From a virus, in IMG/VR virus record IMGVR_UViG_3300025030_000004, positions 32,001-96,000 of that record: a stretch of DNA of 64,000 nt; one strand, 5' to 3'. The translations under genes and the position numbers were made by a program. The notes under the pieces were generated by a model. It did no database searches and had not been told where the DNA came from. It saw only the letters and a list, made by a program, of their open reading frames with translations. Position 1 is the stretch's first letter, and every line of letters starts with the position of its first letter. Positions 3,956 to 56,671 of this stretch are shown piece after piece.

Positions 3956-4061
3956 GTTGATAATATTTTTTGGAATTTAATATTAGAAAGGGGTGAGATA
4001 TTGTTTAAAATGTGTGAATTAGTTAGTAAGGTTAGTGTTAGTTGGAGGGGTGGTGGAAATA

Positions 4062-4268
4062 ATGGCTAAAGAAATTAAAGTTAAAGAAGATTCAAGTAAA
4101 ACTTGGATTATGACTTTAGGCGTAGTTTTTGAAAGCGAAGAGACAAAGGAATCAGCAATGCGAGACTTTCAATCAACTATGGATGACTATGTAGATAATT
4201 GCAGAATGATAGAAGTTATCAGTTGTAAACAAGCTAATCTTAGTTTTAAATTAGTTGAAGGCGAATAA
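4062..4268 (+). CDS. hypothetical protein
   Basis: G-rich RBS before ATG 4062. Confidence 0.6.
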   Translation: MAKEIKVKEDSSKTWIMTLGVVFESEETKESAMRDFQSTMDDYVDNCRMIEVISCKQANLSFKLVEGE

Positions 4269-4505
4269 TACTTTAAATGGAAAATTTCATTTGGTTTAGT
4301 TTGATTTGACCTTTGGGATGGTTGGGAATATACTTGGGTTACTAAATGAATCATAAATAATAAATGGGAAGGATTGATTGCTTGAAAAATTCAGGTAATT
4401 GCTGGCGACCAATAAAATTTAATAAATCACCACCTACTTCAATATATTGTTAAAAGACTATTAAAAAATAAATAAAAAATATATTGAAAGAAGGAATACA
4501 TAATA

Positions 4506-26843: not shown

Positions 26844-28403
26844 CTATTTGTCCTTGATAATATCAAGAAAATACTTATCTAGTCCATTATTCCATTCAAT
26901 ATCTATTCCTTTATCTAAATGTATAGTTATTCTTTTTATGATTTTTCTCAATCCAACGTTATCAATGGTAGCAATATCAAAATCCTTAATAAGTTCTACG
27001 AAAGAATTATACAACTTATATATATTATTAATCTCCTTATTGATGTTTATAATCTTATTTCTAGATAATTCTAATCCTTTTAATTCTTCGTCAACTGATT
27101 TTTTAACCCTATTATATTCCTCCTTAGAAATTTCTCCATCGGCTCTCATCGCAGACAATCCATCTTTACGTTTCTCTAATTTCGTAATTGATTCCTCAAT
27201 TAAAGGAAGTTTCTTTATAAAATCTTTTCCTAAATTTGATTCAATATAAACGTCGTAATATCGTTTCATCACTAAAGGGTTAATATTTTTAACTTTTTCA
27301 ACTTGTTCTTGAATATAATCTAGTATATCTTCTTCCCTAATGTAATGATAGTCGCTACACATGCTTTTATCCCTATGTCTATTACTACATAGATAATAAA
27401 ATAAATCTGGCTTGTCTCTTCTCTGTGCTCTTTTCATAGACGCTTTACAATTTGCACAATAAAAAATATTGGATAGTAAATTCTTGGAACTATATTTCTT
27501 GTTGCTCTTTACTAACAAAGCTCTTGATTCTTTAATCTCATTTGCTCTAATAAAAAGGTCGTCACCAATAATTCTTAAATTTTCAAAATAATGCACTATT
27601 CTATCATCTTCATCAATTGTCTGAATTTTACTTGTAAATATATCTAACATCACAGATTGATAATTGACCTGCTTTCCTGTATAAATTGGATTGCTGATTA
27701 TTTTACCTATCGTTGCTTGTTGCCACATTTTGTTTTTCTTAGATGGGATACCTAATTCATTTAAAGTCAAAGCTATTTTGAATAAAGAATATCCTTGATT
27801 AACATACCAATTAAATATCTTCCGTATAACCTCAGATTCGCCTGTATTGATTTGTAGGAATGCTTTAACCCTATCATAACCGTAGGCTGGTTGACTCGTC
27901 CAGTGACCCTCTTTTTGTGCTTGTCTCATACCTACCTGAATACCTTTAGATAATGCTATTAATTCATTCTGAGCAAGAGAACCTAAAATATTAAGCATAA
28001 CCTCATCGCCATAAGTTTTAGCATAATCTCCGGTGTTTAAATTCTCTTTAAGAAAAAATACTCCTATATCTTTTTTTCTTAATTCTCTGACTGTCTCTTG
28101 GAGCGTTACAATATCACGACTGTAACGAGCTATATTACTCGTCAATATCTGAACAAAAAATCCTTTATTTGAATCAGTCATCATTTTATTAAATTCATCA
28201 CGTTTTTTTGTACTTTTACCACTAATACCCCTATCCGCATAAACCCCATCTTTCCCACATTCTTTGACTAAATAATATCCTAATTCTTCAGCCCTTTCTT
28301 TAAATATTTTTTGTTGGTTATCAAATGAATTCTTTTGATCATCAGAACGGGTTGAGACGCGAGCATAGGCCACCGCAGGTAAAAGAGTTGAATATTTAGA
28401 CAT
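26844..28403 (-). CDS. large serine recombinase (integrase)
   Basis: YARVST catalytic Ser, DRGISG, ARYSR, recombinase domain, Zn-ribbon CANC...C..., coiled coil. Confidence 0.95.
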   Translation of the reverse strand: MSKYSTLLPAVAYARVSTRSDDQKNSFDNQQKIFKERAEELGYYLVKECGKDGVYADRGISGKSTKKRDEFNKMMTDSNKGFFVQILTSNIARYSRDIVTLQETVRELRKKDIGVFFLKENLNTGDYAKTYGDEVMLNILGSLAQNELIALSKGIQVGMRQAQKEGHWTSQPAYGYDRVKAFLQINTGESEVIRKIFNWYVNQGYSLFKIALTLNELGIPSKKNKMWQQATIGKIISNPIYTGKQVNYQSVMLDIFTSKIQTIDEDDRIVHYFENLRIIGDDLFIRANEIKESRALLVKSNKKYSSKNLLSNIFYCANCKASMKRAQRRDKPDLFYYLCSNRHRDKSMCSDYHYIREEDILDYIQEQVEKVKNINPLVMKRYYDVYIESNLGKDFIKKLPLIEESITKLEKRKDGLSAMRADGEISKEEYNRVKKSVDEELKGLELSRNKIININKEINNIYKLYNSFVELIKDFDIATIDNVGLRKIIKRITIHLDKGIDIEWNNGLDKYFLDIIKDK

Positions 28404-28572: not shown

Positions 28573-29469
28573 ATGCTATTTTGGGATTGTGGTAACTCAT
28601 ATGGGAAAGCTCTTGACTCAAAAGGAAGAGAATTATTAACTCTTTCGGTCATCGGTAAAGCACAAGACTCATTTACAGAAAAACAACTATGGCAAATTGA
28701 TGGAAATTATATCGGAGAAGATGCAATAAAACATGGTTATGCACAGGATTACTCATTGGATGAAATCAAAACACAACAATCTACATTCAAAACACTAACA
28801 AAATACATCCTATGCAATTACAAAAATGAAGACAAGGTAGTATTCTTATTTCCATTTGAATCTTATTTTTCAGAAAAGAAACAAATCATTGAAATGTTTA
28901 GTAAAAATATGGATATCATTTATAAGATAGGAAACACTACCTACACTTATAATTTTAACCCCACTTTAATCAAATCATTACCACAAGGATTTTGTGCAGG
29001 AATGGATTATTTTCTAGATGATAATGGAAAACAAAAAGAAGATATTCCAAACGTAACTCTGATTATCGACGTAGGAATGGGGACTGTGAACTATATTTAT
29101 TTACTAAAGGGTGAGGTTATAAGAGAAATGTCTCATACAACTGCTAATGGAATGCATCAGATTTATAAACGAGGACTCCAAGGTAGAAAGATTTATGAAG
29201 TAGATATGTATCATGGGTATGATTCAATAGCACATTTATATCCAGATTTAGCAACACTAATAAAAAGCGATGTAACAACTTACTACAATATCAAACAGAT
29301 TGATAGAATTTTATTTGTTGGTGGAGGAGGGACTGCCATATATTATTTCTTGCCTTGGACAAATAAAGTTTTGCACAAAGGTCAATTCTCTAATGTTAGA
29401 GGTGCAAAAAAGGTGGTGCAGAATCTATCATGGGGGAAATCAGAACATTTAGAGATGATGATGTCTTAA
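28573..29469 (+). CDS. ParM/StbA-family actin-like ATPase
   Basis: WDCGNSYGK, PQG, IIDVGMGTVN, FVGGGG actin-fold motifs. Confidence 0.88.
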   Translation: MLFWDCGNSYGKALDSKGRELLTLSVIGKAQDSFTEKQLWQIDGNYIGEDAIKHGYAQDYSLDEIKTQQSTFKTLTKYILCNYKNEDKVVFLFPFESYFSEKKQIIEMFSKNMDIIYKIGNTTYTYNFNPTLIKSLPQGFCAGMDYFLDDNGKQKEDIPNVTLIIDVGMGTVNYIYLLKGEVIREMSHTTANGMHQIYKRGLQGRKIYEVDMYHGYDSIAHLYPDLATLIKSDVTTYYNIKQIDRILFVGGGGTAIYYFLPWTNKVLHKGQFSNVRGAKKVVQNLSWGKSEHLEMMMS

Positions 29470-35625: not shown

Positions 35626-37128
35626 TTATAAATATATCCAAACTAATTTTGTTCCATTTTGTAATGCACCTGCTGATTTTTGCTTGTTTGTACAACATGA
35701 ATATATATTACCTACTTTGATGCTATATTTAACTCCAGCTTCTATTGCAGAGTCAAACACTTCTTCTGTAGTTATACATTTAACTTTTTTTGATCTTTCC
35801 TGATTTCTTTTAATAAACCCTACTAATCTTTTTTCTTTTTCTAATTGTGGATCATATTCGCACCAACCTAATTCAGTTCCTTGTTTTAAATATTTTCTAA
35901 TAGATTTTCTTCCTAATTTTAATATTTTTGCAATGTTTGTAACATTTTTTGTACCCTTATTCCATTCATCACATGCTAACTTAACCATGCTTTTAATTCC
36001 TGCTTCATAGCACTTCAACCAATTTATATCTTCTTCCTTAAAATTTAATAGTATAGGTAATTCACTGCTCATTATGTTATTTTTTATCCATTCCATTGTA
36101 GAATATCTACAATCAATAATAATATAATGATCTATTTTATGTTCTTTAGCTAACTGTTCTTTTTTTCTATCATTTTCTTGTGTTTCTGTTAATCTGCTCC
36201 ATTTTCTACTATTTTCTTCATAATGTTGAATTCCATGACATTCACAAATTCCATTTATATCATCTAGATAAAAATCATATCTATAATCTTTACACCATTT
36301 AAAAGTCTTTTTTGTTAATTCTGTTTGAAATATTTTATTTAATTGTTCAAATAAATTATATGTAAATTTCTGGGAGAAACTTATACCATCACTGCAACGA
36401 GAGCATCCGAACCCTTGATGGAGAAAATGAGAAATGCTTATTGGTTTTTCAAATTTACAATTAGGACATTTCATTAAAATTTTTTTATTTGAACCTGCTG
36501 ACACAGACAACGCATCTTCTTTGTTTACTAAAAATTTTACTAAATGAGGATGAGTCATTGAAATTGTATTACATTGATTGCAAGTAATACTTCCTTTATT
36601 GCCATGTGTAAAACTATTGATATTCTTTTGTTCAGATTTATGTTTAGGGTGATCTAAACATTTGAACCAATATCCTTTTTGATTTAAAGTATTAGAACTA
36701 TAACTTACATCTTGAGGTCTAATTACATTACCATATTCATCAACATTTAACTCATAATCCCATCTGGATATTATATAATCTGCTACTTCTTTTGATAAGT
36801 TTTCGTAGCACCAATCATAGAAAGATATACTGTTTTTTAATCTCGTTTTTATCATTTTTATTGTACCAAATAATTTTATAGCACATTTAAGACAATAATA
36901 TTTTCCATCATTATGTATAGACCTTTTATAATCTTTCCACCTAACATTTTTTATCTCTTCTCCACACAAATCACATTTAATATTAATCAATGACACAGAT
37001 CCTTTAGATAAATCTTCTACTTTTACTTCAAAATTATCTCCTAATTTTGTATAAATGTATTCTTTTTCTTCATACCATGCTTTGTTTCTTCCATTCCACT
37101 TAACAATTGCAGTTTTACTAATCAACAT
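35626..37128 (-). CDS. zinc-ribbon / very-short-patch-type (PD-(D/E)XK) free-standing homing endonuclease with NUMOD1-like tail
   Basis: multiple CxxC, YRYDFYL...IECHGIQHY...NDRKK, KKVKCITTEEVFDS. Confidence 0.7.
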   Translation of the reverse strand: MLISKTAIVKWNGRNKAWYEEKEYIYTKLGDNFEVKVEDLSKGSVSLINIKCDLCGEEIKNVRWKDYKRSIHNDGKYYCLKCAIKLFGTIKMIKTRLKNSISFYDWCYENLSKEVADYIISRWDYELNVDEYGNVIRPQDVSYSSNTLNQKGYWFKCLDHPKHKSEQKNINSFTHGNKGSITCNQCNTISMTHPHLVKFLVNKEDALSVSAGSNKKILMKCPNCKFEKPISISHFLHQGFGCSRCSDGISFSQKFTYNLFEQLNKIFQTELTKKTFKWCKDYRYDFYLDDINGICECHGIQHYEENSRKWSRLTETQENDRKKEQLAKEHKIDHYIIIDCRYSTMEWIKNNIMSSELPILLNFKEEDINWLKCYEAGIKSMVKLACDEWNKGTKNVTNIAKILKLGRKSIRKYLKQGTELGWCEYDPQLEKEKRLVGFIKRNQERSKKVKCITTEEVFDSAIEAGVKYSIKVGNIYSCCTNKQKSAGALQNGTKLVWIYL

Positions 37129-40414: not shown

Positions 40415-40824
40415 TTAAAAAATAGGAATAGTAACGGTTACACCTTTCATTGCAAAATATCCTAGAATTAATACCCCAATAATTGAACCGCTAATTTTTA
40501 ATATATTAATAATAATATCCTTTTTATTTGTCGATTTGGTTTTAGTAAGCTCAGTTGAATTATTAGAGGTATTGATTACAATTTGTGACATTGTTTGCAT
40601 CATTGAATTAGCTGTTTGCAAATAATTGTTTTCAAAACGTACCAATGTGCCTTTTACATCTTTCATTGAATCTTCCAGATTATTAAGTTTTTCTTCAAAA
40701 CTTGCACTTTTAATTTGCAAATCTATAATTTTTTTATCGTGATCATCAATTTTCTTACCATGATCATCAAGAATTATTTTTACTTCATCTTCAATTCCCA
40801 CTTCTTCCAACACCTCATCTTTCA
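40415..40824 (-). CDS. XhlA-like lysis accessory protein (coiled coil plus C-terminal TM)
   Basis: GGGAGG RBS before TTG 40824; H.K.I.DH..KI..L coiled coil, C-terminal TM. Confidence 0.6.
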
Positions 40825-40852
40825 AAGATAGCTGCCCTCCCTTTAAAATAAT

Positions 40853-40958
40853 TTGCAAATAATCTGAATCTATGGTATAATTAATTGCCAATACTATAGA
40901 CATGTTCTATAGCCAAAGGCAACAAGGGAAGCAGGGCAATGCAACCCTTGTTATTTTT
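40853..40958 (+). ncRNA. promoter plus ~72-nt two-hairpin small RNA antisense to the lysis operon
   Basis: TTGCAA-N17-TATAAT with TG; hairpin CTATAGA/TCTATAG; terminator AACAAGGG...CCCTTGTT-ATTTTT. Confidence 0.6.
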
Positions 40959-40974
40959 GACTTTGAACTATCAA

Positions 40975-42471
40975 TTACTTCACCTTACCTATATGCTTGA
41001 GCACAGAAATCAAAGTATCGTATCGATCTACCCCAGTTAAATGTAAGGTAATATTAGAGTTGAATTTTTGTCCTCCTATTTGAATCACTTCTTCATATGT
41101 TTCCAATATATCTTGTGTCATTTCACTTGCATCAATTGCTTTAATTTTAGTAAAGTCAGACAAATACATGGCTGCTCTAGCATCGGGTTCATATAGACTA
41201 AATATTATTTTCCCTTGTTTTTTAGGAACAATTTCCTTTTTAATCAACTCATATATTTGAATGATTTCCTGTCCGTAATTATTCCCCGGAACAGCCCATC
41301 TCCCATTTAAATCCTCCCAATTTGTGGCAACCCCTCTTGCAACTAAATCAAATCTAGGATCAACTTTTGCTAAATTAGATGGTAATGATTGTTTCGAAGC
41401 GTAAGCAAATAAATGTTCTAAATGTGCTAAAACACCTTCATCCTGAGAATTAAAGAATGTTCCACTTGCACCATTTCCTATTGCCCCAATTCCTGCATAA
41501 TTATTTTGATTTGATTTGACATCTCCACCGTAACGCAAATATGAAGTTTCTTTAATCATTTGAGCTACTGCGTAACCCCATTTGATTCCAAGTAATTCAC
41601 CATATTTTTTATAGAATGGAATAATGTTTGGCGCGTTAGGATTTACTTTTTTAATAAATTGATTACATTGTTCAATTGTTACAGTTTCAGTACCTAGAAT
41701 TGGAGTTTTTGGAGTAGATGGGGGCGGAACGCTTCCACCAATCACACCTAAATCAAAAATCTTACCATCTTTAACACATTCTAGAGTTACACTTTTACCT
41801 TTGAGATTTTCATTTGAGTAATTAATGCTTTTTTGTTTTCCAGTGAGGACAATTAATTGGACGTTATTTACTTTGATTCTAAATAATTCATTTTCATAGT
41901 TAGTTGAGAGAGGTGGAGTGGGGGATGGGGGAGAGGGTTGTTGTATTTGTTCGTTCCTTCGTTTGATTTCATTATTAATAGCAACAATTAATTGTTGCCA
42001 AGTTTTACCCATTCTTTGTAAATATCCATAGGGATCTGTGTGATTAACTCCTGCGTATAAAGACCTCAATCCATTATGCGACCACACATTGTCATCAACA
42101 TTCCAACCATGACGAATACAAACATCAGCAACGAGCCAAACGGTTTTATTCCAAACAATATTAAATTGATTTTTATCATTTGTTTCTGCCATCTCTATTC
42201 CTAACCATTCTCGATTCCCCTGCCAACTGCCTGTATGCCATGCTATTTCGTTTTCGGGAACGAATTGATAAATTTCATTTCCAATCCAATCTGCAATAAA
42301 ATGAACTGAAGATTGCCTATCTGCGCTGTTCCAATAATTATAATGATTAAGAGAAGTCGCTCCAATGTTGGCTGTGGAATGAATTGTAATTCCCTTTAAT
42401 TTAACAAATGGTTCTTTAGACCTATTTTTAGATATAAATTGTTGTTTAATATACATTGCATTCATCTCCAA
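40975..42471 (-). CDS. endolysin: Amidase_2 + glucosaminidase + cell-wall-binding tail
   Basis: IHSTAN, SVHF, AWHTG, IEMAE, HTDP; Pro linkers; AQMIKET, NNYAGIGA, GRWA; GVDRYDT. Confidence 0.9.
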   Translation of the reverse strand: MEMNAMYIKQQFISKNRSKEPFVKLKGITIHSTANIGATSLNHYNYWNSADRQSSVHFIADWIGNEIYQFVPENEIAWHTGSWQGNREWLGIEMAETNDKNQFNIVWNKTVWLVADVCIRHGWNVDDNVWSHNGLRSLYAGVNHTDPYGYLQRMGKTWQQLIVAINNEIKRRNEQIQQPSPPSPTPPLSTNYENELFRIKVNNVQLIVLTGKQKSINYSNENLKGKSVTLECVKDGKIFDLGVIGGSVPPPSTPKTPILGTETVTIEQCNQFIKKVNPNAPNIIPFYKKYGELLGIKWGYAVAQMIKETSYLRYGGDVKSNQNNYAGIGAIGNGASGTFFNSQDEGVLAHLEHLFAYASKQSLPSNLAKVDPRFDLVARGVATNWEDLNGRWAVPGNNYGQEIIQIYELIKKEIVPKKQGKIIFSLYEPDARAAMYLSDFTKIKAIDASEMTQDILETYEEVIQIGGQKFNSNITLHLTGVDRYDTLISVLKHIGKVK

Positions 42472-42573
42472 AAATTATTTATATTTTATGATTTTTAAGC
42501 AAAAGAAAAACACTAGATGATTTTTCCCTAGTGTCTATTTCTTGCGAAATAATTTTAAATTATTATATATTGT

Positions 42574-43563
42574 TTATTGCACAAAACATTTTTTATATGT
42601 ATGATTAACGTGATCATCTGTAACTTGACAATAAATTTGAGTGGTTTTTGGATCGCTATGCCCAAGAATATTTTGGACTGTACTTAAATCACAATTATTA
42701 TTTAGTAAAAGTGTTGCAGTTGTGCTCCGCATGACATGTGGGTGGAACTCTTTGTTTATTCCACAATTGTTTAATATTGTTTTAAATTCTCTTTGAATAC
42801 CACGTTTTGATAATCTTCTATATGGTTTTCTCTCTGTAATAAATAGAGCAGGGTCATTGTCCGTCCTAGAATTTATGTATTTTTTCATTTGAAATATTGC
42901 TTTATATCCAAAATACACATCTCTCTGTTTATCGCCTTTGCCAATTACTCTAATTTTCATATTTTGCCAATCAATATCCGTAAAACGATTAATATTATAA
43001 ATTTCTGATAACCGACACCCCGTAGCATAGAAAACTTCTATCATTGTTTTTTGGCGTGGTGTTTTACAAGACTCTCTGATCTGTTCTAATTCTTCTATTG
43101 TCAAGGCTTTAGGTAATCTCTTTTCTTTCTTTGGATTTTTTATTTTGCTAGTAGGGTCTGACAGAATTATTTCCTCATTCTTTAACCAACTTAAAAAACT
43201 TTTTAAAACAGATATTCGCCTAGACAATGAACTAGTTTTTAATTTATCCCACTTACTTAAATACATTCTAATATCATTAGTACTAATATCTTCGACTCTT
43301 TTCTGGACATGTTTTGCAAATATTGACAATTCTAATTTATAACTTTTTAATGTTAACTCACTTAACCCCTCTAATTTCTTACCTGATAAAAATAACTTAA
43401 TTTTTTCTTGTAAGTCCATACATTCATTCCTATATGGGGATATTATAGAGATATTATATTTGGTTAATATAGTATTTAGATTATGTAATTGGGACTCTGT
43501 ATTTATTAATGGAAAGTTCTCCATTATTTCTTGTTGTAATAGTTCATTGTAAATGTTTGGCAT
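42574..43563 (-). CDS. XerC/D-like tyrosine recombinase
   Basis: TGCRLSE, GKGDKQR, HPHVMR, LGHSD..TTQIY; AAAGGAG RBS before ATG 43563. Confidence 0.92.
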   Translation of the reverse strand: MPNIYNELLQQEIMENFPLINTESQLHNLNTILTKYNISIISPYRNECMDLQEKIKLFLSGKKLEGLSELTLKSYKLELSIFAKHVQKRVEDISTNDIRMYLSKWDKLKTSSLSRRISVLKSFLSWLKNEEIILSDPTSKIKNPKKEKRLPKALTIEELEQIRESCKTPRQKTMIEVFYATGCRLSEIYNINRFTDIDWQNMKIRVIGKGDKQRDVYFGYKAIFQMKKYINSRTDNDPALFITERKPYRRLSKRGIQREFKTILNNCGINKEFHPHVMRSTTATLLLNNNCDLSTVQNILGHSDPKTTQIYCQVTDDHVNHTYKKCFVQ

Positions 43564-43587
43564 AGCACTGTCTCCTTTCTCATAAAA

Positions 43588-43616
43588 AGTATACCATACT
43601 ATGCCATCAATTACAA
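43588..43616 (-). promoter_or_regulatory. sigmaA promoter of tyrosine recombinase
   Basis: TTGTAA-N17-TATACT with TG extension. Confidence 0.65.
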
Positions 43617-43642
43617 ACAAACTAAAAATAATTAATTATCAC

Positions 43643-43674
43643 TTAGTGAACTACATGCGTCTATTATGCAACAA
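43643..43674. other. candidate tyrosine-recombinase site (cassette boundary 1)
   Basis: TTAGTGAACTACA-TGCGTC-TATTATGCAACAA at GC-content step. Confidence 0.55.
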
Positions 43675-43801
43675 TTGGATTTCCGTTATCATCAAGTCCG
43701 AGCGCCAACAAGTCCTCGTGAACCGCTGCCTGATACTTCGTTGGAATTTGAACAAAAGTTCTTCTCCCGCTTATGATTAACGCAACATATAAATCTACCA
43801 C
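43664..43801 (-). CDS. CD1375-like small tail-fibre-associated protein (45 aa)
   Basis: GGAGG RBS; MVDLYVALIISGRRTFVQIPTKYQAAV... Confidence 0.75.
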   Translation of the reverse strand: MVDLYVALIISGRRTFVQIPTKYQAAVHEDLLALGLDDNGNPIVA

Positions 43802-43835
43802 ACTAATCCCTCCTGTTAATTTTTTAATTAGCCAA

Positions 43836-43937
43836 TTAAGCATTCAGCATCGCTTGCACTTCGGCACGATACTTCTCTGGTATTTGCTCGATTGTACGCC
43901 TGTTTTCCATGACTAACCGATAATACATTTCTACCAT
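43836..43937 (-). CDS. CD1375-like small protein (33 aa), paralogue
   Basis: MVEMYYRLVMENRRTIEQIPEKYRAEVQAMLNA*. Confidence 0.7.
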   Translation of the reverse strand: MVEMYYRLVMENRRTIEQIPEKYRAEVQAMLNA

Positions 43938-43938
43938 T

Positions 43939-44211
43939 TTATACCGTCCCTTTCGCAAGCATATCTTCATACATTGTGGCGAGTACATCCATCATGATAA
44001 GATTATCCTGTTTTAATGATTCGACTTGTTCCTCTAATGTTAGTGTTGGTGTAAATGGAATAGGCTCTGGAGTGATGAAGGCTCCGTTTTCTTGCATGAT
44101 TTGTCCTACTTCTCCGAAATTGGATTGGATTTCATTTTCTTGAAAAATATAATGTTCAAGTACCTGTTTAGTTTCTGTCACTTCATTGTTAATAACTTTA
44201 ATAACTCTCAT
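43939..44211 (-). CDS. tail fibre assembly/chaperone (XkdW-like)
   Basis: PTLTLEEQVESLKQDN pattern; directly after fibre gene. Confidence 0.65.
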   Translation of the reverse strand: MRVIKVINNEVTETKQVLEHYIFQENEIQSNFGEVGQIMQENGAFITPEPIPFTPTLTLEEQVESLKQDNLIMMDVLATMYEDMLAKGTV

Positions 44212-44221
44212 GTCAACCCTC

Positions 44222-45310
44222 CTAGTAGAATTCGATTAGTTGCCATTTAACGTTTAGGTTGCTAGTAGTACCGATTACAAAAGTTAAGGTCGTTCCATTG
44301 GTAATTGTTGCCCTAAGTAATACTTCTGGGAAAGACCCGGCGGTACCTGGTATTGCAGACACAAATAACAAAGATTTTAATGGGTCAACGTTACTAACAG
44401 TTACAGTTCCCGTCAACGCTAATAAGTAGCTACCAGTTTGTAAACTTTTTACATTATAAAATTCAACAACTGTCCAATTAACTGTATGCGTATCTGATGA
44501 CGTACCAGTTTTCCTTGTAATTGTTAGGGTTGTCGAATCTGTTATTACAGCAGCATAACTTGAATCGGCCGCATCTGGAGTCGTGTTACTGGTGAAGCTA
44601 TAATTTATCATTACAACCGCTTTTGTTAAGTCTACGGCTGCAAGAGTTACCACCTGTGTCGCGGTTGCCGCGAACGCAACTGATCCCCTCTGAATGCTTT
44701 TAATGTTACTATACGTTCCTGTTACTGGATTTTTAGGATCTGTCGTGTATGCAGTTTTACCTAAAACGATGTCTGCAGCGGTTGCCGTCCCTGTTAAGGC
44801 TAAAGTACCAGTAATATCACCTGCATCCGTACTCGCTGTTTTACCAGAGAGAAGGTCGGATGCTGTGGCATTTCCACTTGCCCCTTCACCCTGTAATATA
44901 AAATTTGTACCATCGTACCTCAGCGTATAAATCCCTGCGGCTTTTAGATTCGTCGCATCAGTTCCATTTGCTTTTTTAATGCCCTTTGCGCCTTTGCCAT
45001 TCCAATTTAATGTGCTTGCCCCTGTGCTATCTAAGTTGAATTTAACACTTACTGCCATTCCTGTCGTGAGTGCTGCTATCGTTGGCGTTGCTATTGCGTA
45101 AGTGTTAGCTGCGCCAGTGGTTACCCCAGCGTAGGGTACTTGTAGCGTATAATCCGCCTTTTCTACATTAAAGTTTGTTACTATTTCTTGTAAAGCACCT
45201 TCAACATCTGTGGCAGTAATTATATTTCCTGCATCTTGAATACTTACTTTATTGGCATCAGTACCGACAACTTCCCAAACAGTACCGTTCCAATACTTTT
45301 GTTTTGCCAT
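44222..45310 (-). CDS. tail fibre / receptor-binding protein
   Basis: TDVEGALQE, YDGTNFILQGEG, GNATASDLLSGKTA, two IKSIQRG/VKSLQTG repeats. Confidence 0.8.
   Translation of the reverse strand: MAKQKYWNGTVWEVVGTDANKVSIQDAGNIITATDVEGALQEIVTNFNVEKADYTLQVPYAGVTTGAANTYAIATPTIAALTTGMAVSVKFNLDSTGASTLNWNGKGAKGIKKANGTDATNLKAAGIYTLRYDGTNFILQGEGASGNATASDLLSGKTASTDAGDITGTLALTGTATAADIVLGKTAYTTDPKNPVTGTYSNIKSIQRGSVAFAATATQVVTLAAVDLTKAVVMINYSFTSNTTPDAADSSYAAVITDSTTLTITRKTGTSSDTHTVNWTVVEFYNVKSLQTGSYLLALTGTVTVSNVDPLKSLLFVSAIPGTAGSFPEVLLRATITNGTTLTFVIGTTSNLNVKWQLIEFY
45140..45171. other. candidate tyrosine-recombinase site inside the fibre gene (cassette boundary 2)
   Basis: TTGTAGCGTATAA-TCCGCC-TTTTCTACATTAA, encoding NVEK-ADYTLQ, at GC-content step. 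Confidence 0.55.
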
Positions 45311-46104
45311 TAGCTCGCCTCCCTAAATAAATCTATGGGAATTTTATATTTAAGAGATTCTGGTATCTCTTTTAATAAATAAAAGTAATATCCACCTGCT
45401 TGATTTAGTTGTTTTTTAAGACATTTACCAATAGTTGAACGATTTACTTTTAAATCACTAGCACAAATTACTTGGTTATTCCAGATACCTATGAATCCAC
45501 CATCTAAATCAAAAACAGCAAACTCCTTTAAAATTGTTCGCTGAATCATCGATTGTAACTTTTCGTCTGTAAATTCATCTTTAAATATTAATACTTTTCT
45601 TTTAACTGAGTTTTTCCCTTTAATCCCTAACAATACATTATTTACTGACGATATACATACCCCAATTTCTTCCGCAAACTTAGTCTGAGAAAAAGCACTC
45701 TTAATGAAATTGCATTCTAAATCAAACACCAGAAACTCTCTGCCTCCATGCATCATGGATAATCCATCTGCATTATCATTGGTTGTTTTATTGAATTGAC
45801 CACCTACAGTCATGTTATATCCATTAACACCATAGCAATTATAATAATCAATCCAATATAATTCTTTCTCATCGAGTTCTTCTTGATTTTCTGCTATATC
45901 AATTATTGCCCATTCAAATGCATCTTCACCATATTTACTAATTGCAAGATGGAAAGCATATTTACTTTCATTATTAGCTTGACTTATATGCTCTTTCTTT
46001 CTTCTATTTAATCCTCTAATTGTTTGCCCTATGTACCGTTTATCATTAACCGTATTTGTTGCACAATAAATAATTCCATATACATTACTTTTATTTACAT
46101 TCAA
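45310..46104 (-). CDS. GIY-YIG homing endonuclease with NUMOD1-like repeats
   Basis: GIIYC...RYIGQT..R, E..WI, GYNMTVGG. Confidence 0.88.
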   Translation of the reverse strand: MNVNKSNVYGIIYCATNTVNDKRYIGQTIRGLNRRKKEHISQANNESKYAFHLAISKYGEDAFEWAIIDIAENQEELDEKELYWIDYYNCYGVNGYNMTVGGQFNKTTNDNADGLSMMHGGREFLVFDLECNFIKSAFSQTKFAEEIGVCISSVNNVLLGIKGKNSVKRKVLIFKDEFTDEKLQSMIQRTILKEFAVFDLDGGFIGIWNNQVICASDLKVNRSTIGKCLKKQLNQAGGYYFYLLKEIPESLKYKIPIDLFREAS

Positions 46105-46135
46105 TACACATCACATCCCTTCAAAAATAAATTCA

Positions 46136-46161
46136 AAAAGAGTACATGAAAGTACTCTTTT
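46136..46161 (-). terminator. stem-loop after the long fibre gene
   Basis: AAAAGAGTAC-N6-GTACTCTTTT. Confidence 0.6.
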
Positions 46162-46190
46162 ATCCTAAAATTAATTTTAAATTGTTATTT

Positions 46191-49100
46191 TTAGTTTAGA
46201 TCAATCCAAATGTCGTTTGTAATTGGATTACTTGGAGCGACAGTCCCAACCGTAAAATCATGACCATTAATTTTTTCTGCATTGTCAACTATTCCATTTA
46301 GGTTCAGGTCATAAACTGATTTTGTCATATCTCCTGCCCCTAAGGCAGTTACAGTATTTTGCACAAAAGCAGTAGTGGCTAATTGTGTTGTATTTGTTCC
46401 CGTGGTTGCTGTTGGGGCGGTTGGAATACCAGTAAATACAGGAGAGCCTAAATCCGCTTTAAATGAATCATATGAATAAAGTCTTAACCTCCCTCCTTTA
46501 TACTCATATATGGGGTGATCGCCGATCAATCTCATTGTGGCATATGTGTCACCCATAAAACCTAAGAAAATATATACTTTCCCATTTTCTGAAGATGGTA
46601 GTGTCTGAGTTATCCATGCGGTAGAACCAGCTATCCCTGCCCCATCCAATACGAAATTACCATTGGCATTCATAGTGCCTACTAAATAAACTGGTCTATA
46701 TGCAGTAGCCCAGCCACTCGGATTATTAATCGTATAGTGAAAATTACTGTAATAATATTCGCTCCATAGATAGCCCCCTCCACCGTTGGCATTAGCGAGT
46801 AGATCTGTTGAAGTTCCGTGATATAGTATCGTGCCACCTAACTTAAATTCAGCAGATGATACAGTCTTGGTTGTAGCCGTAGTCCCTTCTAGTGTTAACG
46901 GATAGAACTTACCATCAATGCCCTCCATTACAAACTGATATCCATACATCGTTGTTCCAGCAGTAATGTTATTCTGCCAACGCATTTCATAGTCGGACGT
47001 TGAATCATAATCAGAACCCTCTGTCATGAAAGAGCCGCCATTAAGTGTTTCGGAATAAATTAACAAAAGTATAGAATTTGGTTGATAATGTGTGGTCAAT
47101 TTAGAATTTGAATACCTATAAATAGTTTTAGCACCTAATCCATTAATATCTAATGTAGTTGTTGTTGCTCCTGCAATTGGTACTTTATATAGAATAGCTA
47201 ATCCATCATAGTATGAAGTTATGACTGCTTCAGTAGCAAGCCAAGTTCCAGCTACAGTCCCAGTACCATTTATAAAATATGGCGTTACACCTACAGTTAT
47301 ATCTGCTCCAGTATGAGTATGAATAGAAGATGCTTTTCCGTCCAAAGTTGTTTGAAGATTATCAACATTTGAAATGACATGGTTATGGGAGTCATCTACT
47401 ACGGTTGCAGTTAAAGTGCCACTACCCAAATCGGTTAATGTTACACTACCAGTTAAATCCCCTCCAAGAGTAATTGTAGGATCTGGTTTGTTTGTTGCGT
47501 TATTAAAATCTAAGTAGTATGAACCCTCCTGATCATCTAGTTCGTCAGCGTTTAAGTTTGTTACTTTAGATGTTGATGTTATAGTTAGTGTATCGGTATA
47601 TGTATTTGACCAGTAATAAGAAGGATCTCCTAGAGTGTATAAACTATCTGTGTAAGGATATATATTTCCATAAACAGAAGAACCGCCTTTTGATATAAAT
47701 GTTTCTTTTAATCCCTCAGAACCATAATTTAATACTCCTATTTGTGCTATTCTAAATCCAGTTGCAGTTACCCAATCACTAAAAGTTAATCTTACTTTAT
47801 TAAATCCAGTTCCGTTGTTATGACTAAATGTTATGAAATATTCTCCTCTACCATTTCCTGTAACGGTAGCCTTATTTGTCCAATCTACTTCTCCGTTATT
47901 TGGGTTCATTACATCAACTGTAATGTTTCTTGATCTCCAAGCAGAAGCACCAAACGCAATGTATATAGTATTAGTCCATGTAAAAGTTTTGTGTAAAACT
48001 AATTCTATTGAAATTGAAGTGACACCTGTTGGATTGATTGCCCAATATGAAGGAGAACCATCAAACACATTGTTTAAATCAGTACTTTGTAATACACCAT
48101 CATAATATACTGATGCGCTACCGCCTCTTTTTAACAAAAATGCAATATCATTGTTTATGAATGGAATAATAGCTTTTCCATTTTCTGGGTGCGTGTCAAT
48201 ATATATTTGAGAATCAGTATATCCGCTACCAAAATACTCTGGATCAATATTTGTTACAGGAATAATAATATTTGATGAACCATCAAATGAAGTGGCAGTT
48301 CCAGTAGCACCACCACTCATAGCTATAGTTCTAGCGGTCGTTAATTTTGAAGCACTTAAAACATTTTTAGCTGAATCAGCAATATTGTCTGCTGATCCTA
48401 AACCAACTTGAGATTTAGTAACTGAGTGAGGATTTGATGAATTACTAGTATGAGAAGTTAATGTTGTTAGATTATCGGATATTTGTTTTTGTAATTTGCC
48501 TAAAGCACCAAGAATTGTATCAGTAGTAGTTATAATAGCATTTGTGGCTGTAGATAATCCTGTTAAAACCGTTGATAAAACTGTTGAAGCAAAATCTGAT
48601 ATTTTAGATGAAGTTGTTGTTCCTGTTAGATTACCAATATTTATATTTGACTCAACTACATCTAAAGTGGGATTTCCTGCAACTCCAGCAGGATTTGTTA
48701 TGCTTAATTTAGTAGAACCTACAGCTATATTTCTTTTTGTAAAAGTATCTGTTCCTGTTTCTACTACTAAACCTGTTGTAGTGTCTAACCCTGCAAGAGC
48801 AGTAAGGGTAGCATCACTTGTTTGTTTCCCGTTTAATTGAGTTTGAATAGCAGAAGTAACTCCACTAACATACCCTAATTCTGTTGAAGTTACTGCACTT
48901 GTAGCAACCTTACCGCTAGAATCTGAAACCAACGCTTTACTAATAGTTAAATTAGAAGAAGTTATTGAAGTTGCTCCACCTGTAATTGTATTTTGTTTGG
49001 ATGTATCAGAAGGATGAACGTGATCTGCCCTTGGAATATTACTAGAAGTCCCTACTGAAACATTTCCATCCATTTTCATATTAGTTGTGGATGTTTCAAA

Positions 49101-52100
49101 ATTTTGATTAAAAGCAGTTAGTTTTGTAATTGTAGGTTCAGCTCCAATAGAAGCAGGAGATATAGGGTCAGAACCTCCTATAGCATGTGTAGACGCATGA
49201 ATATAATCTATCACATTCATCACACTAATATAATCAACTAACACTTTATCATTTTCTTCAACTCCACCATCTAAAGTTATACTAGTGGTAGAAGTTTCAG
49301 TAAATGAAGTATTTGGTTGTCTAGTACCATTAATATACACTTGTACTCTATTAGTACCAATATTATATATACCCTGTGTAAGAGTAAATAAAGTTTGTCC
49401 TGCCGAAGCAGTAAACTCTTCAGAATGTTGAATCACAACATAATCACTACCAGTTATACCAGATAATAAATTTTGTTTTGTTATTTTTTTATATGCCAAA
49501 TTAGTAGAATCATAAATTAATATCTCATCAGTATTCACAGAAGATAATAATTCGGTTAAATTATAAAAATCATCATCAAGTGGTCTACTTACGAGAGATG
49601 TATAATTTTTTTCTGCTAAATTTGCAAGATTATGATTATGTGTAGTTGCAGATTTACTGTCTAATGCTGTCTGTAAACTATCAACATTACTAATTACATG
49701 ATTATGTGAATCATCTACAACTGCTACAGTAAGTGTTCCTGAACCTAAATCTGTAAGTGTAACACTACCTGTTGCATCTCCTGTAAGAGTAATAACTGGA
49801 TCTGGTTTGTTGGTAACATTAGTCCAATCTTGATAATATGAACCATGTTGTCCATCAAGTAAATCAGAGTCCAAACCTGATGTGGTACCGTCAACTGTTA
49901 ATAACTTTGTCAAAATTCCACTGGCAGAATCATTAATCCCGAAAGAGATATTTGAATACCATATAGTAGAACCTGCCACGTCTCTGTTGTTTAGAAATAA
50001 TAATTTTACGTATGCCGTAGCGGGGGTAAAATTATTATAATTGTCTGCATTAATCCCACCACTAACAACTCCACTAATAGTGTCGGTATAATTTGTCCAT
50101 ACTGAAGGAACAACAGAATTGACTGCGCCAATATAAATATAGGAAGATCCTGAACTACCATTACTAATCGGTGTACCTACAGGCTTAGTTACTCCACTCC
50201 AAGGCACTTTAAGAGTTATTGAATTAGTATCATAGTTAACTGCCCCATCACTCCATGTATCATACCCAGAGTAATTTCTGCTATAGGTTTCAGGTGGGTA
50301 TAAATAACCCCCTGCATTACTATAATCCCAAGTTATAAATGAGCGATTATGGGTACTTGATCCTTGAGCATTTTGCCAATTGGCAGCACTTGTTAAATAT
50401 AATACTGTGTCACCAGGTTTCAATTCTTGCGCTAACATAGTTAAAGTATTTGGGAAATACATGTAATGATAAGCGGATATAGGGTTTTTGTCCACGTCAG
50501 AACATGATATTCCTGTGTAATATTTAGCTCCAACACTGGGGTATGTTTTGGCGTAAACGCTTAGACTGTAAGACAACATTGGGTTTACGGGTATGAACTC
50601 ATCAGAATATCTTGTCGCATTGTAGGTACTATCCTTAAAAGAACCACCAGCCCCATATGCATCAGACTTGTCTAAAATAAAAGCGCTAAAATTAGTATTA
50701 TTGCCAAGTAAGGCCGTTCCGTTGGTTACTAAATTTTGCCCCCTCGATGCTACATAATCATAGATATCTGTTAATTGTTTCCCATCCAATAAATCGGAAT
50801 CTAACCCACTACCACTACCATCGACAGTTTTTATCTTAGTTAAAACATCGCTTGCGGTATAGGATGAAGAATCCAACTTGCCATTAATTGCCGTTTGTGT
50901 TGCTGTGCTGATTGGTTTATCAAGATCTGTTGTATTATCTACATTAGACAATCCAACCGCTGTTTTATCAAGCGCTTGCCAAGTTTTGTCTCCCCTCCAA
51001 TATTGAGAGGTTGTTCCTGCTGTAATTGTTGACTCTTTAGTAGAATCAGCAATCGTTACATTAGCCGTACCATCAAATGAAACTCCATTGATTGTTCTTG
51101 CTGTCGTTAATTTAGTAGCACTCAAGACACTTTTAGTAGAATCAGAAGTATTATCCGCTAAACTCAATCCTACTTGCGATTTAGTTACGCTATGGGGATT
51201 TGAACTATTAGAAGTATGATTAGTTAAAGTTGTTAGATTATCACTAATTTGTTTTTGCAATTTACCTAAAGCTGTCAAAACCGTATCGGTTGCTGTAATC
51301 ACAGCATTAGTGGTTGTCACCAATCCTGTTAAAATAGTTGCTCTAACTGTAGTGGCGAAATCTGAAATTGTAGAAGCTAACTGAGTGCCAGTGTGATTTG
51401 CTCTATCTCTATCAGTTGTGTGATAATGCCCAGAAACATCTCCGCTTAACGCACTTTGTTTGGCATTCCAAGTTGATTTCTCTGTATCGGTTACAAAACG
51501 ATTTGAGGCATCTTGGCTAATAATGGAGGGAGGATGATTGGCAGGGTGAATATACACAGTATCAGTAAATAAAGCCCCTACAGGTACGTTGGTCAAAACT
51601 TGACTATCGTCCACCTTCCCATCAAGTGCTGTTTGTAACCCATCTACATTTGATATAATGTGATTGTGAGAGTCATCATTTATAGATACATTACCGCTAA
51701 CATCTATTGTAATATCAGTGCCAGATTTAATACCTCCTAATACAATAGCCGTAGCAACAGGCAAGGAATAATTGTTAGCATTATCTTCAATTCCACTTAA
51801 TTTTGTTTGTTCGGCAGTTGTATATGAAGCAGTAGTATTGTCTAGGATTGTTTGATTTAAATGGGAATGTTTTTTAGCTACAGAATCATCAATATTGGCA
51901 GGAGTCGAAGTTGGTTTTCCTGTAATGTCAGACCAAGCAACTGATATCCCACTATTGCCATAAAAATCTTGAGTGGTATCTACGAATGCTTGAGAAAAAT
52001 CACCATTTGGTAGTTCAATATTTACGACTTCCCCGACAGTAGGGGATAGTCCTGCACGAACTTTTATATTAGAATATGTCTCGTCATTTAATACAATATC

Positions 52101-52235
52101 AACAGTACCATCAACATTTAATGTTTGTATAACTGCTTTTTTCTTTTTATTAAATTCAGCTTTATTTAATGCTGAATCAATCATTATAGACATTACATTA
52201 AACAAATCTTTAGCTTGTTTTATTTTATCTGACAA
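46191..52235 (-). CDS. long mosaic tail fibre (2014 aa) with internal duplications
   Basis: Thr/Ser/Gly-rich; [35 protein letters not shown] repeats. Confidence 0.85.
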
Positions 52236-54161: not shown

Positions 54162-55420
54162 ACTATAACCTCCGCATGGAGACTTAATATATTACCAATT
54201 TGTTGTAAATACAAATAATAACTAGATCCATTTACTGAAACGTTATCTATTTCTATACCATTTTCAAACAAGTGAAATGCACCATTATAATATCTAAGTA
54301 AAATTATATCACTATTACTATTTGACATTTTTAATATTTCACTTGTATCATTTGAACTATTGCTTCCAGTATCAATCCATAATTTATCTGTAGTTGGAGC
54401 TACAATATCTAATATGGGAGTTAATACTCTTGGCACAATGGTTTGATCATCTATCCATAAGTAATTTGTAGCAGGAGTAATATTACCTGCTGATATATTT
54501 AATGACAATTCTGTTGTTTGAGCAGAATTATCAAGCCATATAATAGATGTGTCAGTTAATGGTACATTATAGGACGTGATAGAAGTAGTTTGATTGATTG
54601 TGTATACATTATTATTAACACTTTCTAACCAAAGTTTTAATGTGAAATCATTTTCTATATTAAAATCACTATCAAACCAGACTCTACCATTTGTAGTATC
54701 AATCTTTTCACCATTGATGTATGAAGTATTTTCTGAATTACCGATGATTTGAACAACATTCCATTGTAAATTGATAGCTCCTTGGTCTGATATGTTTGAT
54801 GATTGAAGATCAAGTACGGATTCGGGAACGGTATATTGGATGTTGAATTTTATTTTATTCGTACTTGCCAAAATATCATCCTGTGACTTCACTTGGCACT
54901 CTATATAATAAAAATTATTATTAAAACCAGAAAATTGATATTCTATAATAGAATTAAACGTTTCTGATGTAGTTGTGATAATGGCATTGTTACTGTCATA
55001 CATTATCATTTGCCATGATTTAATTGCTACTGATTCTAATTGGCTATATTGTGCCGTAAAAAGATATTGTGAATTGTAAATAATGTCGTTTTCTATTACG
55101 TTTGTAAAAGAAATTGAGGGAGTGGAAGAACATTTAAAAAGTATCCAATTCGAAGTAGCTGATGCGTCAACTTGATTAAATGTTTGGATCTGATATTTAT
55201 AAATAGTTCCATCAATTAATGTGTTACCAGAAATAACATGAAAAGTATTAAAAGATACTACTACATTTGTATCATAAACTAAAACATTAGTCGTATTGTT
55301 ATATATTTGAATTCTATATTTATATTGTCTATCTCCTGAGTTAATCCAACTTATTGTTATTGGAAAAGTAGCATCTAAACTAATATTATTAGGAGAGATA
55401 CCACTGGGCTTCATAATCAT
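54158..55420 (-). CDS. tail protein with Fn3/Ig-like domains
   Basis: ISW...YRIQIY...YKYQIQT pattern; follows tape measure. Confidence 0.65.
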   Translation of the reverse strand: MIMKPSGISPNNISLDATFPITISWINSGDRQYKYRIQIYNNTTNVLVYDTNVVVSFNTFHVISGNTLIDGTIYKYQIQTFNQVDASATSNWILFKCSSTPSISFTNVIENDIIYNSQYLFTAQYSQLESVAIKSWQMIMYDSNNAIITTTSETFNSIIEYQFSGFNNNFYYIECQVKSQDDILASTNKIKFNIQYTVPESVLDLQSSNISDQGAINLQWNVVQIIGNSENTSYINGEKIDTTNGRVWFDSDFNIENDFTLKLWLESVNNNVYTINQTTSITSYNVPLTDTSIIWLDNSAQTTELSLNISAGNITPATNYLWIDDQTIVPRVLTPILDIVAPTTDKLWIDTGSNSSNDTSEILKMSNSNSDIILLRYYNGAFHLFENGIEIDNVSVNGSSYYLYLQQIGNILSLHAEVIV

Positions 55421-56568
55421 TTATATCCCTCCTTAGACAAAATTAAATTCTTATTTAAAAGATAACTTTCTAAAATATTTTCAATCTTATCAAAATCACA
55501 ATACCATATTTCTAAAAAATTATATTTGTTTAATAAAGTATATTCTTTTTTGCGTCTATCATGTTCAACTTGTTTTTCAAAATCTTTTTTTGACTTATGA
55601 AGACCTTTTTTATATTTCTCGTGTTGAACCCCTTGATACTCAATTAATAGACTATGTTCTGGTAAATAAAAATCATAAGAAAGTAATCCACTACCCAATC
55701 CTAATAACCCTTTAAATTCTTTTTGCGGTTCATAACAAATACTATTATTAACCAACCATTCTTTAATTCTCTTTTCGCCTTTTGACTTATTGCATTCTGG
55801 ACAACCACGACCAGAACTTCTGCTTTTTATTGTGGAATCCCATTCGTGTTCACATTCAAAACATTTCCACCAAACTTTTCGTCTATCATATTTAACTACA
55901 TTAAATGGAGTTAAATCTCCGTTTAAACTTGGATGCCATTCTTTTGCTAATTCTGGATTCTTTGTTGCCAAACAATTAGATATCCCAATTTGTCTACTAT
56001 CACATGCTCCACAACCCATTCCTTCTATGATTCTATTCCAAGTAGCTTTAAAAGTCTCTCCACATTTAGGTTTTAAACACCTCCATTCTAATTTTTTCAT
56101 AGAAGTTTCATATTTATCACTAATTAACTCAAATGGTTTACTATTCAATTCACACCAGAGTTTGATATTTTGAATTGAAAAATCATTTGATGGATATGCT
56201 ATTGGAAAACTTCCATGTTTTCGATTGTCACTCAACATTGTCCAACTCATTGAAAATAAATACCCAAGTTTATCTTTTAAAACTAACCTTGAACAACTAT
56301 TTGTATATACATTTGACAATAATTCTAAATTTATATTATTTACTATTAGATAAAGATTAATGTTTTGTATTGTATATGGATTCGAACAATGAATATATGA
56401 AGGTGGATATCCTTGATTTAAACTATCTAAACTCACTTTATAATAATACCCTATTTTATCTGATATGGTTATTGGTGTTCTTATATTATTATATTTAGTA
56501 TCAATTAAATTATATCCTAAGTCTTCAATAATCTCTTTAACTTCTTCATATTTATATTTTTTACCCAT
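55417..56568 (-). CDS. zinc-ribbon / very-short-patch-type free-standing homing endonuclease
   Basis: AAGGAGG RBS before ATG 56568; LATKNPELAKEW, WWKC..C.HEW, SYDFYLP..LIEYQG.QH..HDRRK. Confidence 0.8.
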   Translation of the reverse strand: MGKKYKYEEVKEIIEDLGYNLIDTKYNNIRTPITISDKIGYYYKVSLDSLNQGYPPSYIHCSNPYTIQNINLYLIVNNINLELLSNVYTNSCSRLVLKDKLGYLFSMSWTMLSDNRKHGSFPIAYPSNDFSIQNIKLWCELNSKPFELISDKYETSMKKLEWRCLKPKCGETFKATWNRIIEGMGCGACDSRQIGISNCLATKNPELAKEWHPSLNGDLTPFNVVKYDRRKVWWKCFECEHEWDSTIKSRSSGRGCPECNKSKGEKRIKEWLVNNSICYEPQKEFKGLLGLGSGLLSYDFYLPEHSLLIEYQGVQHEKYKKGLHKSKKDFEKQVEHDRRKKEYTLLNKYNFLEIWYCDFDKIENILESYLLNKNLILSKEGYK

Positions 56569-56615
56569 TTTATCCTCCTTTATAATATCCTCATAAAAAA
56601 TAAACAAAACAAAAA

Positions 56616-56671
56616 GCAGGGAAGAGGAGGATTCTCTTATCGGTGAGTTAATTACTCTCACCTATCCCTAC
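56616..56671 (-). ncRNA. structured three-way-junction leader RNA
   Basis: P1 GTAGGG/CCCTGC, P2 loop with TAATTA, P3 loop AATCCTC complementary to GAGGAT at two downstream sites including the RBS. Confidence 0.75.

Follow-up and report, generated by a model that had tools for sequence, protein, structure and literature searches.

Phage tail-fibre mosaicism takes several known forms: T-even phages exchange the distal parts of their fibres between conserved motifs, and P2, Mu, P1 and lambda share fibre genes. In PBSX-type prophages of Bacillus and Clostridia, the end of the tail module and the lysis genes follow the order XkdV, XkdW, XkdX/CD1375, XhlA, holin and amidase. Recombinases are found beside the 3' end of fibre or adhesin genes in Mu (G segment, Gin) and P1 (C segment, Cin), which use serine invertases, and in the R64 shufflon, which uses the tyrosine recombinase Rci, while in integrons the integrase gene precedes an array of cassettes that lack promoters and are transcribed from Pc, and is itself read in the opposite direction. 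The Tyroviruses are Bacillus phages of 160-170 kb with terminal repeats and three tyrosine recombinases, one of which, gp50, is encoded among the structural genes and has as yet no assigned function (PMC9703825). Here, we analyze a tail-fibre locus in a 64,000-nucleotide stretch of viral DNA (bases 32001-96000 of IMG/VR record IMGVR_UViG_3300025030_000004, hereafter the window), in which a GC-richer block holding most of a fibre gene adjoins a tyrosine recombinase gene. The original prediction, made from the sequence, described this block as an integron-like, exchangeable fibre-tip cassette moved by the recombinase. Comparison with related loci (given L-numbers, such as L002, L038 or L070) indicates that the locus is probably an ordinary mosaic PBSX-type tail-fibre module beside an unrelated, self-contained recombinase unit.

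Three-part organization of the fibre gene

The fibre gene and its parts, all on the minus strand, are as follows.

44222-45310, minus strand: fibre, 362 amino acids
45161-45310, minus strand: N-terminal module of the fibre, residues 1-50, with backbone-like composition (GC content at third codon positions, GC3, of 0.18)
44805-45160, minus strand: conserved fibre domain, residues 51 to about 169, from ADYTLQVPY, with DNA and amino-acid identity to many loci
44222-44804, minus strand: variable distal tip, residues about 170-362, with L002 (about 50%) and L005 (about 42%) as the only loci to which it aligns

Forty-eight IMG/VR loci are related to the fibre. In about 30 of these, the DNA match is confined to positions 44805-45159, with an identity of 70-82%, and the conserved domain encoded there is 60-87% identical to its relatives at the amino-acid level. 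The ends of this DNA likeness cluster at 44805-44814 and at 45154-45159 (at least 10 loci); the latter falls within the core of one of the two recombination sites that had been proposed, at the point where the ADYTLQVPY domain opens. A search for the domain behind unrelated N-termini, suggested in the original prediction, found it in 36 loci, where the preceding part measures from 20 to about 500 residues. The opposite combination is seen in L038, which has fibre residues 1-48 in common with the window (65% amino-acid identity; DNA likeness at 45201-45310) and then continues into a different tip; the N-terminal module is common to this locus only. The earlier claims that a constant N-terminus of about 50 residues is fused to a replaceable tip, and that the second proposed site lies in frame between NVEK and ADYTLQ, are therefore borne out, and a modular fibre whose replaceable distal part is joined in frame at this point is supported. 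The fibre has no relative among solved structures, and its conserved domain has no Pfam family.

Both ends of the conserved domain also differ from the rest in synonymous codon identity. The median codon identity of pairs that encode the same amino acid is 0.43, but it reaches 0.61 over the six opening codons of the domain and 0.8-0.92 close to the distal end; the raised values are located at 44805-44930 and 45140-45160 and are strongest distally. This pattern fits DNA-level homology at points of exchange, and codon bias or recent shared ancestry could also explain it.

Composition and gene content of the GC-richer block

The genes that follow the fibre within the block are these.

43939-44211, minus strand: 90-amino-acid protein in the XkdW position, 44% identical to the product of the 89-amino-acid gene after the L002 fibre
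43836-43988 and 43664-43843, minus strand: two tandem CD1375-family (XkdX-like) genes (NF040910, phrog_1382)

A two-breakpoint likelihood fit gives segments with a GC content of 0.29, 0.41 and 0.29, with the left break at 43657 (2-log-unit interval 43629-43704) and the right break at 45323 (interval 45137-45349), which confirms the GC step foreseen at the two ends of the block. GC3 is 0.18 in fibre codons 1-50 and 0.33 in codons 51-362, and the right-hand edge can be placed near residue 50 because GC3 rises there. The block thus defined contains fibre residues 51-362, the 90-amino-acid gene and the two CD1375-family genes, which score 49.6 and 36 bits on NF040910 (cut-off 22.5). An internal direct repeat (43719-43750 and 43855-43886) marks the latter as a tandem duplication; the gene is single-copy in the related cassette of L002. 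With regard to content, the original prediction was right about the 3' part of the fibre and the two CD1375-like genes, but its "chaperone" was named from position only: the 90-amino-acid protein had no family match in profile searches, and its gene position alone suggests an assembly factor.

The closest relatives of the cassette (L002-L007) have a GC content of 38-47%, with L002 at 47%, and a derivation of the cassette from a GC-richer lineage is supported. In L002, the counterpart of fibre residues 53-361 is followed by the 89-amino-acid gene and the CD1375 gene and then directly by XhlA and an amidase, without a recombinase.

A 30-nt AT-rich, low-complexity direct repeat (25/30 identical; 42547-42576 and 46169-46198) lies just past the stop codons of the recombinase gene and of an upstream gene for a 2014-amino-acid tail or fibre protein, and so brackets the segment that runs from a homing endonuclease gene to the recombinase. 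As a candidate for a special element it was rejected, since it ranked joint top of 276 intergenic pairs yet was no outlier.

The proposed sites at the ends of the block

Two sites, each made of 13-nt arms around a 6-nt core, had been proposed at the ends of the block.

43643-43674: proposed site 1, covering the last codons and the stop of the 59-amino-acid gene and the first bases of the recombinase unit
45140-45171: proposed site 2, covering the codons for FNVEK and ADYTLQ

It was suggested that they are attL/attR hybrids left when a circle was captured by the adjacent tyrosine recombinase, and that excision and capture of the cassette would switch host range. The strings are present, and their coordinates and arm counts were given correctly: between the sites, the inner arms match at 9/13 positions and the outer arms at 8/13 (17/26 in total). 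Within each site, however, the arms match at only 7/13 and 6/13 positions, and the cores (TGCGTC and TCCGCC) are identical at 4/6. Tyrosine recombinases such as lambda Int, Cre and Xer require identical overlap regions. In addition, when 400 random pairs of 200-nt regions, separated by 1.5 kb, were drawn from this window, 77% contained a 13-6-13 pair with at least 17/26 matches. The real pair reaches exactly 17; that share of null pairs scores as well, and the sites do not rise above chance. Nor do the boundaries fold like attC: single-stranded DNA folds of both, on both strands, gave z-scores of 0.0 to +1.7 against shuffled sequences. The attL/attR meaning of the two strings is therefore not sustained.

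Both sites nonetheless mark real edges. At site 1, the last cassette gene stops at 43664, and likeness to the recombinase unit of L070 and L071 starts at a TCACTAA motif near 43652; at about 43652-43664, the cassette borders on a recombinase unit that moves independently. This is a genuine boundary between modules but cannot be shown to be a recombination site. Together with the end of likeness at 45154-45159, this agrees with the prediction that identity between relatives would break at both places. Site 2 has another reason to be conserved, because its inner arm is the coding sequence for DYTLQ. This arm occurs in the 36 loci mentioned above. Among the 23 loci with the ADYTLQ domain and at least 3 kb of downstream sequence, this recombinase is present in two (L017 and L027) and absent from 21.

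Capture of a circle by the adjacent recombinase is, on this evidence, very improbable, even though both sites fall on real junctions, the neighbouring recombinase is intact, alternative tips stand behind the same N-terminal module, and segments have been swapped directly upstream of homologous recombinases in two pairs of loci (L137/L145 and L077/L080, described below). The cassette of L002 is held without a recombinase, and the breakpoints in those two pairs have no motif in common with the proposed sites. The outcomes that were named beforehand as damaging to the idea, namely breakpoints away from the sites and a flat GC profile, were not found, and it fails on the further tests: chance-level sites, unequal cores, no attC fold, a recombinase in only 2/23 loci and an L002 cassette that has none. 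The integron-like, recombinase-driven mechanism is thus not upheld.

A self-contained tyrosine recombinase unit

The recombinase gene is accompanied by signals of its own.

42574-43563, minus strand: Xer/XerA-like tyrosine recombinase, 329 amino acids from the ATG at 43563
43588-43616, minus strand: recombinase promoter with an extended -10 region, TTGTAA-17-TATACT with an upstream TG, from a promoter scan
43558-43606, minus strand: leader hairpin pairing the -10 region with the start codon, a predicted RNA fold
42501-42534, minus strand: terminator-like hairpin and T-run after the recombinase gene, read from the sequence

The protein contains the PF00589 (Phage_integrase) domain (123 bits) and the SAM-like domain PF02899 (44 bits) and scores 234.6 bits on NF040815 (cut-off 220). 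Residues R184, K209, H276, R279, H302 and Y311 are invariant in 14 homologues, with catalytic roles assigned by their usual spacing and not by structure. These domains, the NF040815 score and the promoter at 43588-43616 bear out the earlier description of an intact XerC/D-like recombinase with its own promoter beside site 1. With a GC content of 0.29 and a GC3 of 0.23, the gene is backbone-like and unlike the cassette.

The unit is conserved well beyond this genome. The promoter core GGCATAGTATGRTAT is kept in L027, L050, L059, L070 and L071, and a hairpin follows the stop codon in every relative examined. L070 and L071 (4892-5979 in both) are 87% identical in nucleotides only from position -106, counted from the start codon, to the recombinase stop codon, and their flanks are wholly different, with tail and lysin genes in one and GIY-YIG and baseplate genes in the other. 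Because they share only this segment, the recombinase can be regarded as a separately mobile module of promoter plus gene. A search for 11-mers in the flanks of seven close recombinase loci found nothing shared except the promoter.

The leader of the recombinase gene has a peculiar structure. The sequence that spans the start codon recurs in inverted form as the extended -10 region of the promoter (43558-43616), and the predicted hairpin has a free energy of -26.8 kcal/mol and a z-score of about -5 to -6 in the window. Hairpins that hide the AUG are also present in relatives (L059:4463-4517, L050:7930-8005 and L017:9268-9330; z-scores of -5 to -8 across the set), the arms of the L059 hairpin being a perfect 16-mer, and analogous hairpins with different sequences are found in the co-oriented loci L070, L071, L077, L140, L107, L017, L051 and L052. 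The hairpin is absent in the three close relatives with the opposite gene orientation. Among about 85 loci, strong start-sequestering hairpins (z-score of at most -5, AUG fully paired) occur in co-oriented loci only; many co-oriented loci lack a strong hairpin, and start-codon calls are uncertain, so that the association between hairpin and orientation is only suggestive. It may be that the hairpin acts by fold-back inhibition and keeps the enzyme out of the late programme: read-through transcripts from the fibre genes would hold both arms and hide the start codon, and transcripts from the recombinase's own promoter would leave it accessible.

An inversion switch in the manner of Mu G or the R64 shufflon was also considered, in which the recombinase would flip a segment between 18-bp inverted repeats. 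Two repeat pairs could serve, one flanking the recombinase unit (15/18; 42437-42454 and 43659-43676) and one flanking the tip (14/18; 44185-44202 and 45167-45184), and in L062/L068, L069 and L064 the recombinase gene faces the other way from the genes around it. Null tests of the two pairs gave p of about 0.06 and 0.29, however, and comparable long inverted repeats were not found in the fibre regions of eight relatives. The list of open reading frames contains no fibre-like frame on the plus strand, and no strand-changing joint was found in the contigs, which are a weak test. The probability of such a switch is close to nil.

Placement of the recombinase and natural replacements beside it

More than 1400 homologues of the recombinase were found at E <= 1e-20; the best 120 are 53-75% identical, and the organisms named among the homologues are mostly spore-forming Firmicutes. 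Genomic context was examined in about 22 distinct recombinase loci. Where the gene follows the tail or fibre genes (about 17 loci, see below), the fibres are unrelated, and the carriers include siphoviruses as well as myoviruses. The gene lies inside the tail module in three loci, in the replication module in one, and has no informative neighbour match in one (L095); in L062/L068, L069 and L064 its orientation is opposite to that of the adjacent genes.

Several observations weigh against an unrelated recombinase beside an ordinary fibre module. In about 17 of the 22 loci, the gene is placed at the border where the tail or fibre genes end and the lysis genes begin, as in Clostridium phage phiCp-D, Terrisporobacter phage TPELB_ph1 and prophages of Rummeliibacillus and Anoxybacillus. 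Both proposed sites lie exactly on real module junctions. The true target site was not located, as a conserved inverted-arm site was not found at the unit edges in seven close loci. No relative at least 90% identical was found, and neither the lysin nor the C-terminus of the 2014-amino-acid protein, used as queries, gave more than distant or motif-level matches. Finally, replacements in two pairs of loci give a functional link to fibre exchange a small probability. The members of the first pair, L137 and L145, are prophages of the same bacterial genome, 96-100% identical except at L137:2810-4713 versus L145:2916-4713. The segment replaced is a fibre-tip cassette of about 1.9 kb directly upstream of the recombinase unit; the left break falls after about 115 fibre residues, the right one just past the last cassette gene. 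The second pair, L077 and L080, differ in 4027-4584, also directly upstream of the recombinase unit. The breakpoints of the two pairs have no motif in common with each other or with the sites in the window. Replacement beside the recombinase matches the architecture of the original prediction, but fibre tips behave alike in phages that have no recombinase.

These placements raise the question of one site on the unit's own 5' edge, near 43652, at which the recombinase would act so that crossovers between co-resident phages or prophages with the same unit reassort everything upstream, the fibre tip included, against everything downstream. Int promotes att x att crosses between lambda genomes, to which such events can be likened. 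In its favour are the family's place right behind the last tail gene or the fibre in about 17 of the 22 loci, the 5' boundary near -106, which is sharp and common to the window, L070 and L071, and several close pairs in which likeness ends 98-390 nt ahead of the recombinase start. The breakpoint distances vary, however (-98, -224, -329 and -392), and no conserved inverted-arm site was seen at the unit edges of the seven close loci. Moreover, likeness resumes upstream in L137/L145 and L077/L080, which makes these two-breakpoint replacements, and the leader hairpin suggests shielding from late read-through transcription. We regard single-site crossover as improbable. Similarly, there is a slim chance that the recombinase family, XerA/XerD-like and mostly encoded right behind the receptor-binding genes, is a mobile unit promoting the exchange of fibre-tip cassettes between co-resident phages and prophages. 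If true, this would be a dedicated device for host-range reassortment whose target site is not yet recognised.

A homing endonuclease upstream of the fibre

A free-standing endonuclease gene adjoins the fibre gene on its upstream side.

45310-46104, minus strand: GIY-YIG homing endonuclease (PF01541, 37.6 bits; phrog_7168; TIGR01453, 68 bits)

The gene has a backbone-like GC content of 0.30, and an Rfam search around it found no group I intron. The sequence TAATG at 45308-45312 joins its stop codon to the overlapping start codon of the fibre.

Such an enzyme could have made or spread the junction near the fibre N-terminus, through a break, repair from a co-infecting genome and co-conversion of the flanking DNA. 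A co-conversion model of this kind applies to the seg genes of T4. The endonuclease abuts the fibre with overlapping codons, and related contigs often carry GIY-YIG genes, which adjoin the recombinase in L071 and L064. On the other hand, both the endonuclease and fibre codons 1-50 are backbone-like, the foreign block beginning about 150 nt further on, and the ADYTLQ junction is present in many loci where the endonuclease is not seen. Homing is thus an unlikely origin for the junction.

Proposed origin of the module

Under the favoured reading, a mosaic fibre module next to an independent recombinase unit, residues 51-362 of the fibre and the three small downstream genes would come from a GC-richer Firmicute phage or prophage. 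The mechanism that we infer is general recombination, homologous or illegitimate, whose products would survive only when the crossover lies at the edge of a domain or gene. The DNA for both ends of the shared domain would supply homology for such crossovers, and the middle domain (ADYTLQVPY) would serve as a "handle" for module exchange. The recombinase, for its part, would most likely act on the whole phage genome and not on the fibre gene; possible roles are Xer-like resolution of multimers or an accessory part in integration while the phage exists as a plasmid or prophage.

An integron-like fibre cassette driven by the recombinase would, if true, have added a novel mechanism of host switching in phages. 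What was found favours familiar modular exchange at the edges of a conserved domain, and the locus itself is ordinary. Its value lies in a precise three-part map of the fibre and in the ADYTLQVPY domain as a probable exchange handle in dozens of Firmicute phages.

Genome setting

The source record, an assembly from groundwater metagenomes, is 166,652 bp long, has a GC content of about 31% and carries direct terminal repeats. The following features surround the locus or occur elsewhere in the genome.

46191-52235, minus strand: tail or fibre protein, 2014 amino acids, upstream of the locus, from the list of open reading frames
46136-46161: terminator-like hairpin after the gene for the 2014-amino-acid protein, from a terminator scan
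40975-42471, minus strand: endolysin with amidase_2 and glucosaminidase-like domains
40415-40903, minus strand: XhlA-like gene after the endolysin (XhlA 19.6 bits, under the Pfam cut-off)
74613-75104, 98950-99465 and 160090-160572 of the record, with 26844-28403 and 28573-29469 of the window: three tyrosine recombinases, a large serine recombinase and ALP/ParM

In total, the genome encodes three tyrosine recombinases (three PF00589 matches), among them the one beside the fibre, a large serine recombinase and an actin-like ALP/ParM partition protein. The 2014-amino-acid protein contains repeated fibre motifs that are matched in many viral contigs. Its C-terminus (46191-46260) and the start of the fibre, MAKQKYWNGTVW, jointly resemble one fibre motif. 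Two DUF4379 treble-clef zinc-finger paralogues (35626-37128 and 55417-56661) lie in different phage modules, and homologues of them flank the lysin in related contigs (L053 and L054).

A megablast of 40900-47500 (6.6 kb) against phage GenBank records gave no match. When the block was compared by sensitive blastn and the fibre by protein search with phage GenBank entries, the sole match was 180 nt of the fibre in Geobacillus phage phiOH2. Contigs from four groundwater runs, the probable source samples, contain the reference arrangement without an excision or inversion joint; contigs cannot reveal rare forms, and this outcome therefore counts for neither side. An apparent contig joint from 42445 to 43432 was discarded, as its sides measured only 23 nt and came from another, deeper-covered organism.

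Comparison with known systems

The likeness to integrons is limited to a tyrosine recombinase that adjoins a block of foreign genes. The recombinase reaches 113.6 bits on TIGR02249 (cut-off 265) and 65.2 bits on NF011946 (cut-off 435). It lies downstream of the block and co-oriented with it, and the block begins inside the fibre open reading frame, unlike a promoterless cassette behind a divergent integrase; there is no folded attC at the block boundaries. Mu G, P1 C and the R64 shufflon likewise have a recombinase beside a fibre or adhesin 3' end. This locus differs from them: it offers no alternative 3' segment in reverse orientation, and its inverted repeats are neither significant nor conserved.

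The Tyroviruses resemble the genome in its overall make-up, with a similar size, terminal repeats, three tyrosine recombinases, partition-type genes and one recombinase among the late genes. Gp50 of Thrax1 is the best Tyrovirus match to the window recombinase, at about 30% identity in a sequence comparison that covered the recombinase only. The gene here lies between fibre and lysis genes instead of between neck and tape-measure genes, and no perfect 11-6-11 site follows its stop codon. More generally, a highly conserved recombinase unit that recurs at the border of tail and lysis genes, in either orientation, poses the same puzzle as gp50.

The module itself is best compared with PBSX. The fibre, the gene of about 90 codons, the CD1375 genes, the XhlA-like gene and the amidase all have counterparts in that order, which is uninterrupted in L002. 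The present locus differs from PBSX in the recombinase unit inserted between the fibre and lysis modules, in its duplicated CD1375 gene and in belonging to a 166-kb phage and not to a defective prophage. As in the tail-fibre mosaicism of other phages, a constant proximal part is joined in frame to a replaceable distal part of foreign composition, together with its downstream helper genes; what sets this case apart is that the shared handle is a Firmicute-phage domain beginning with ADYTLQVPY.

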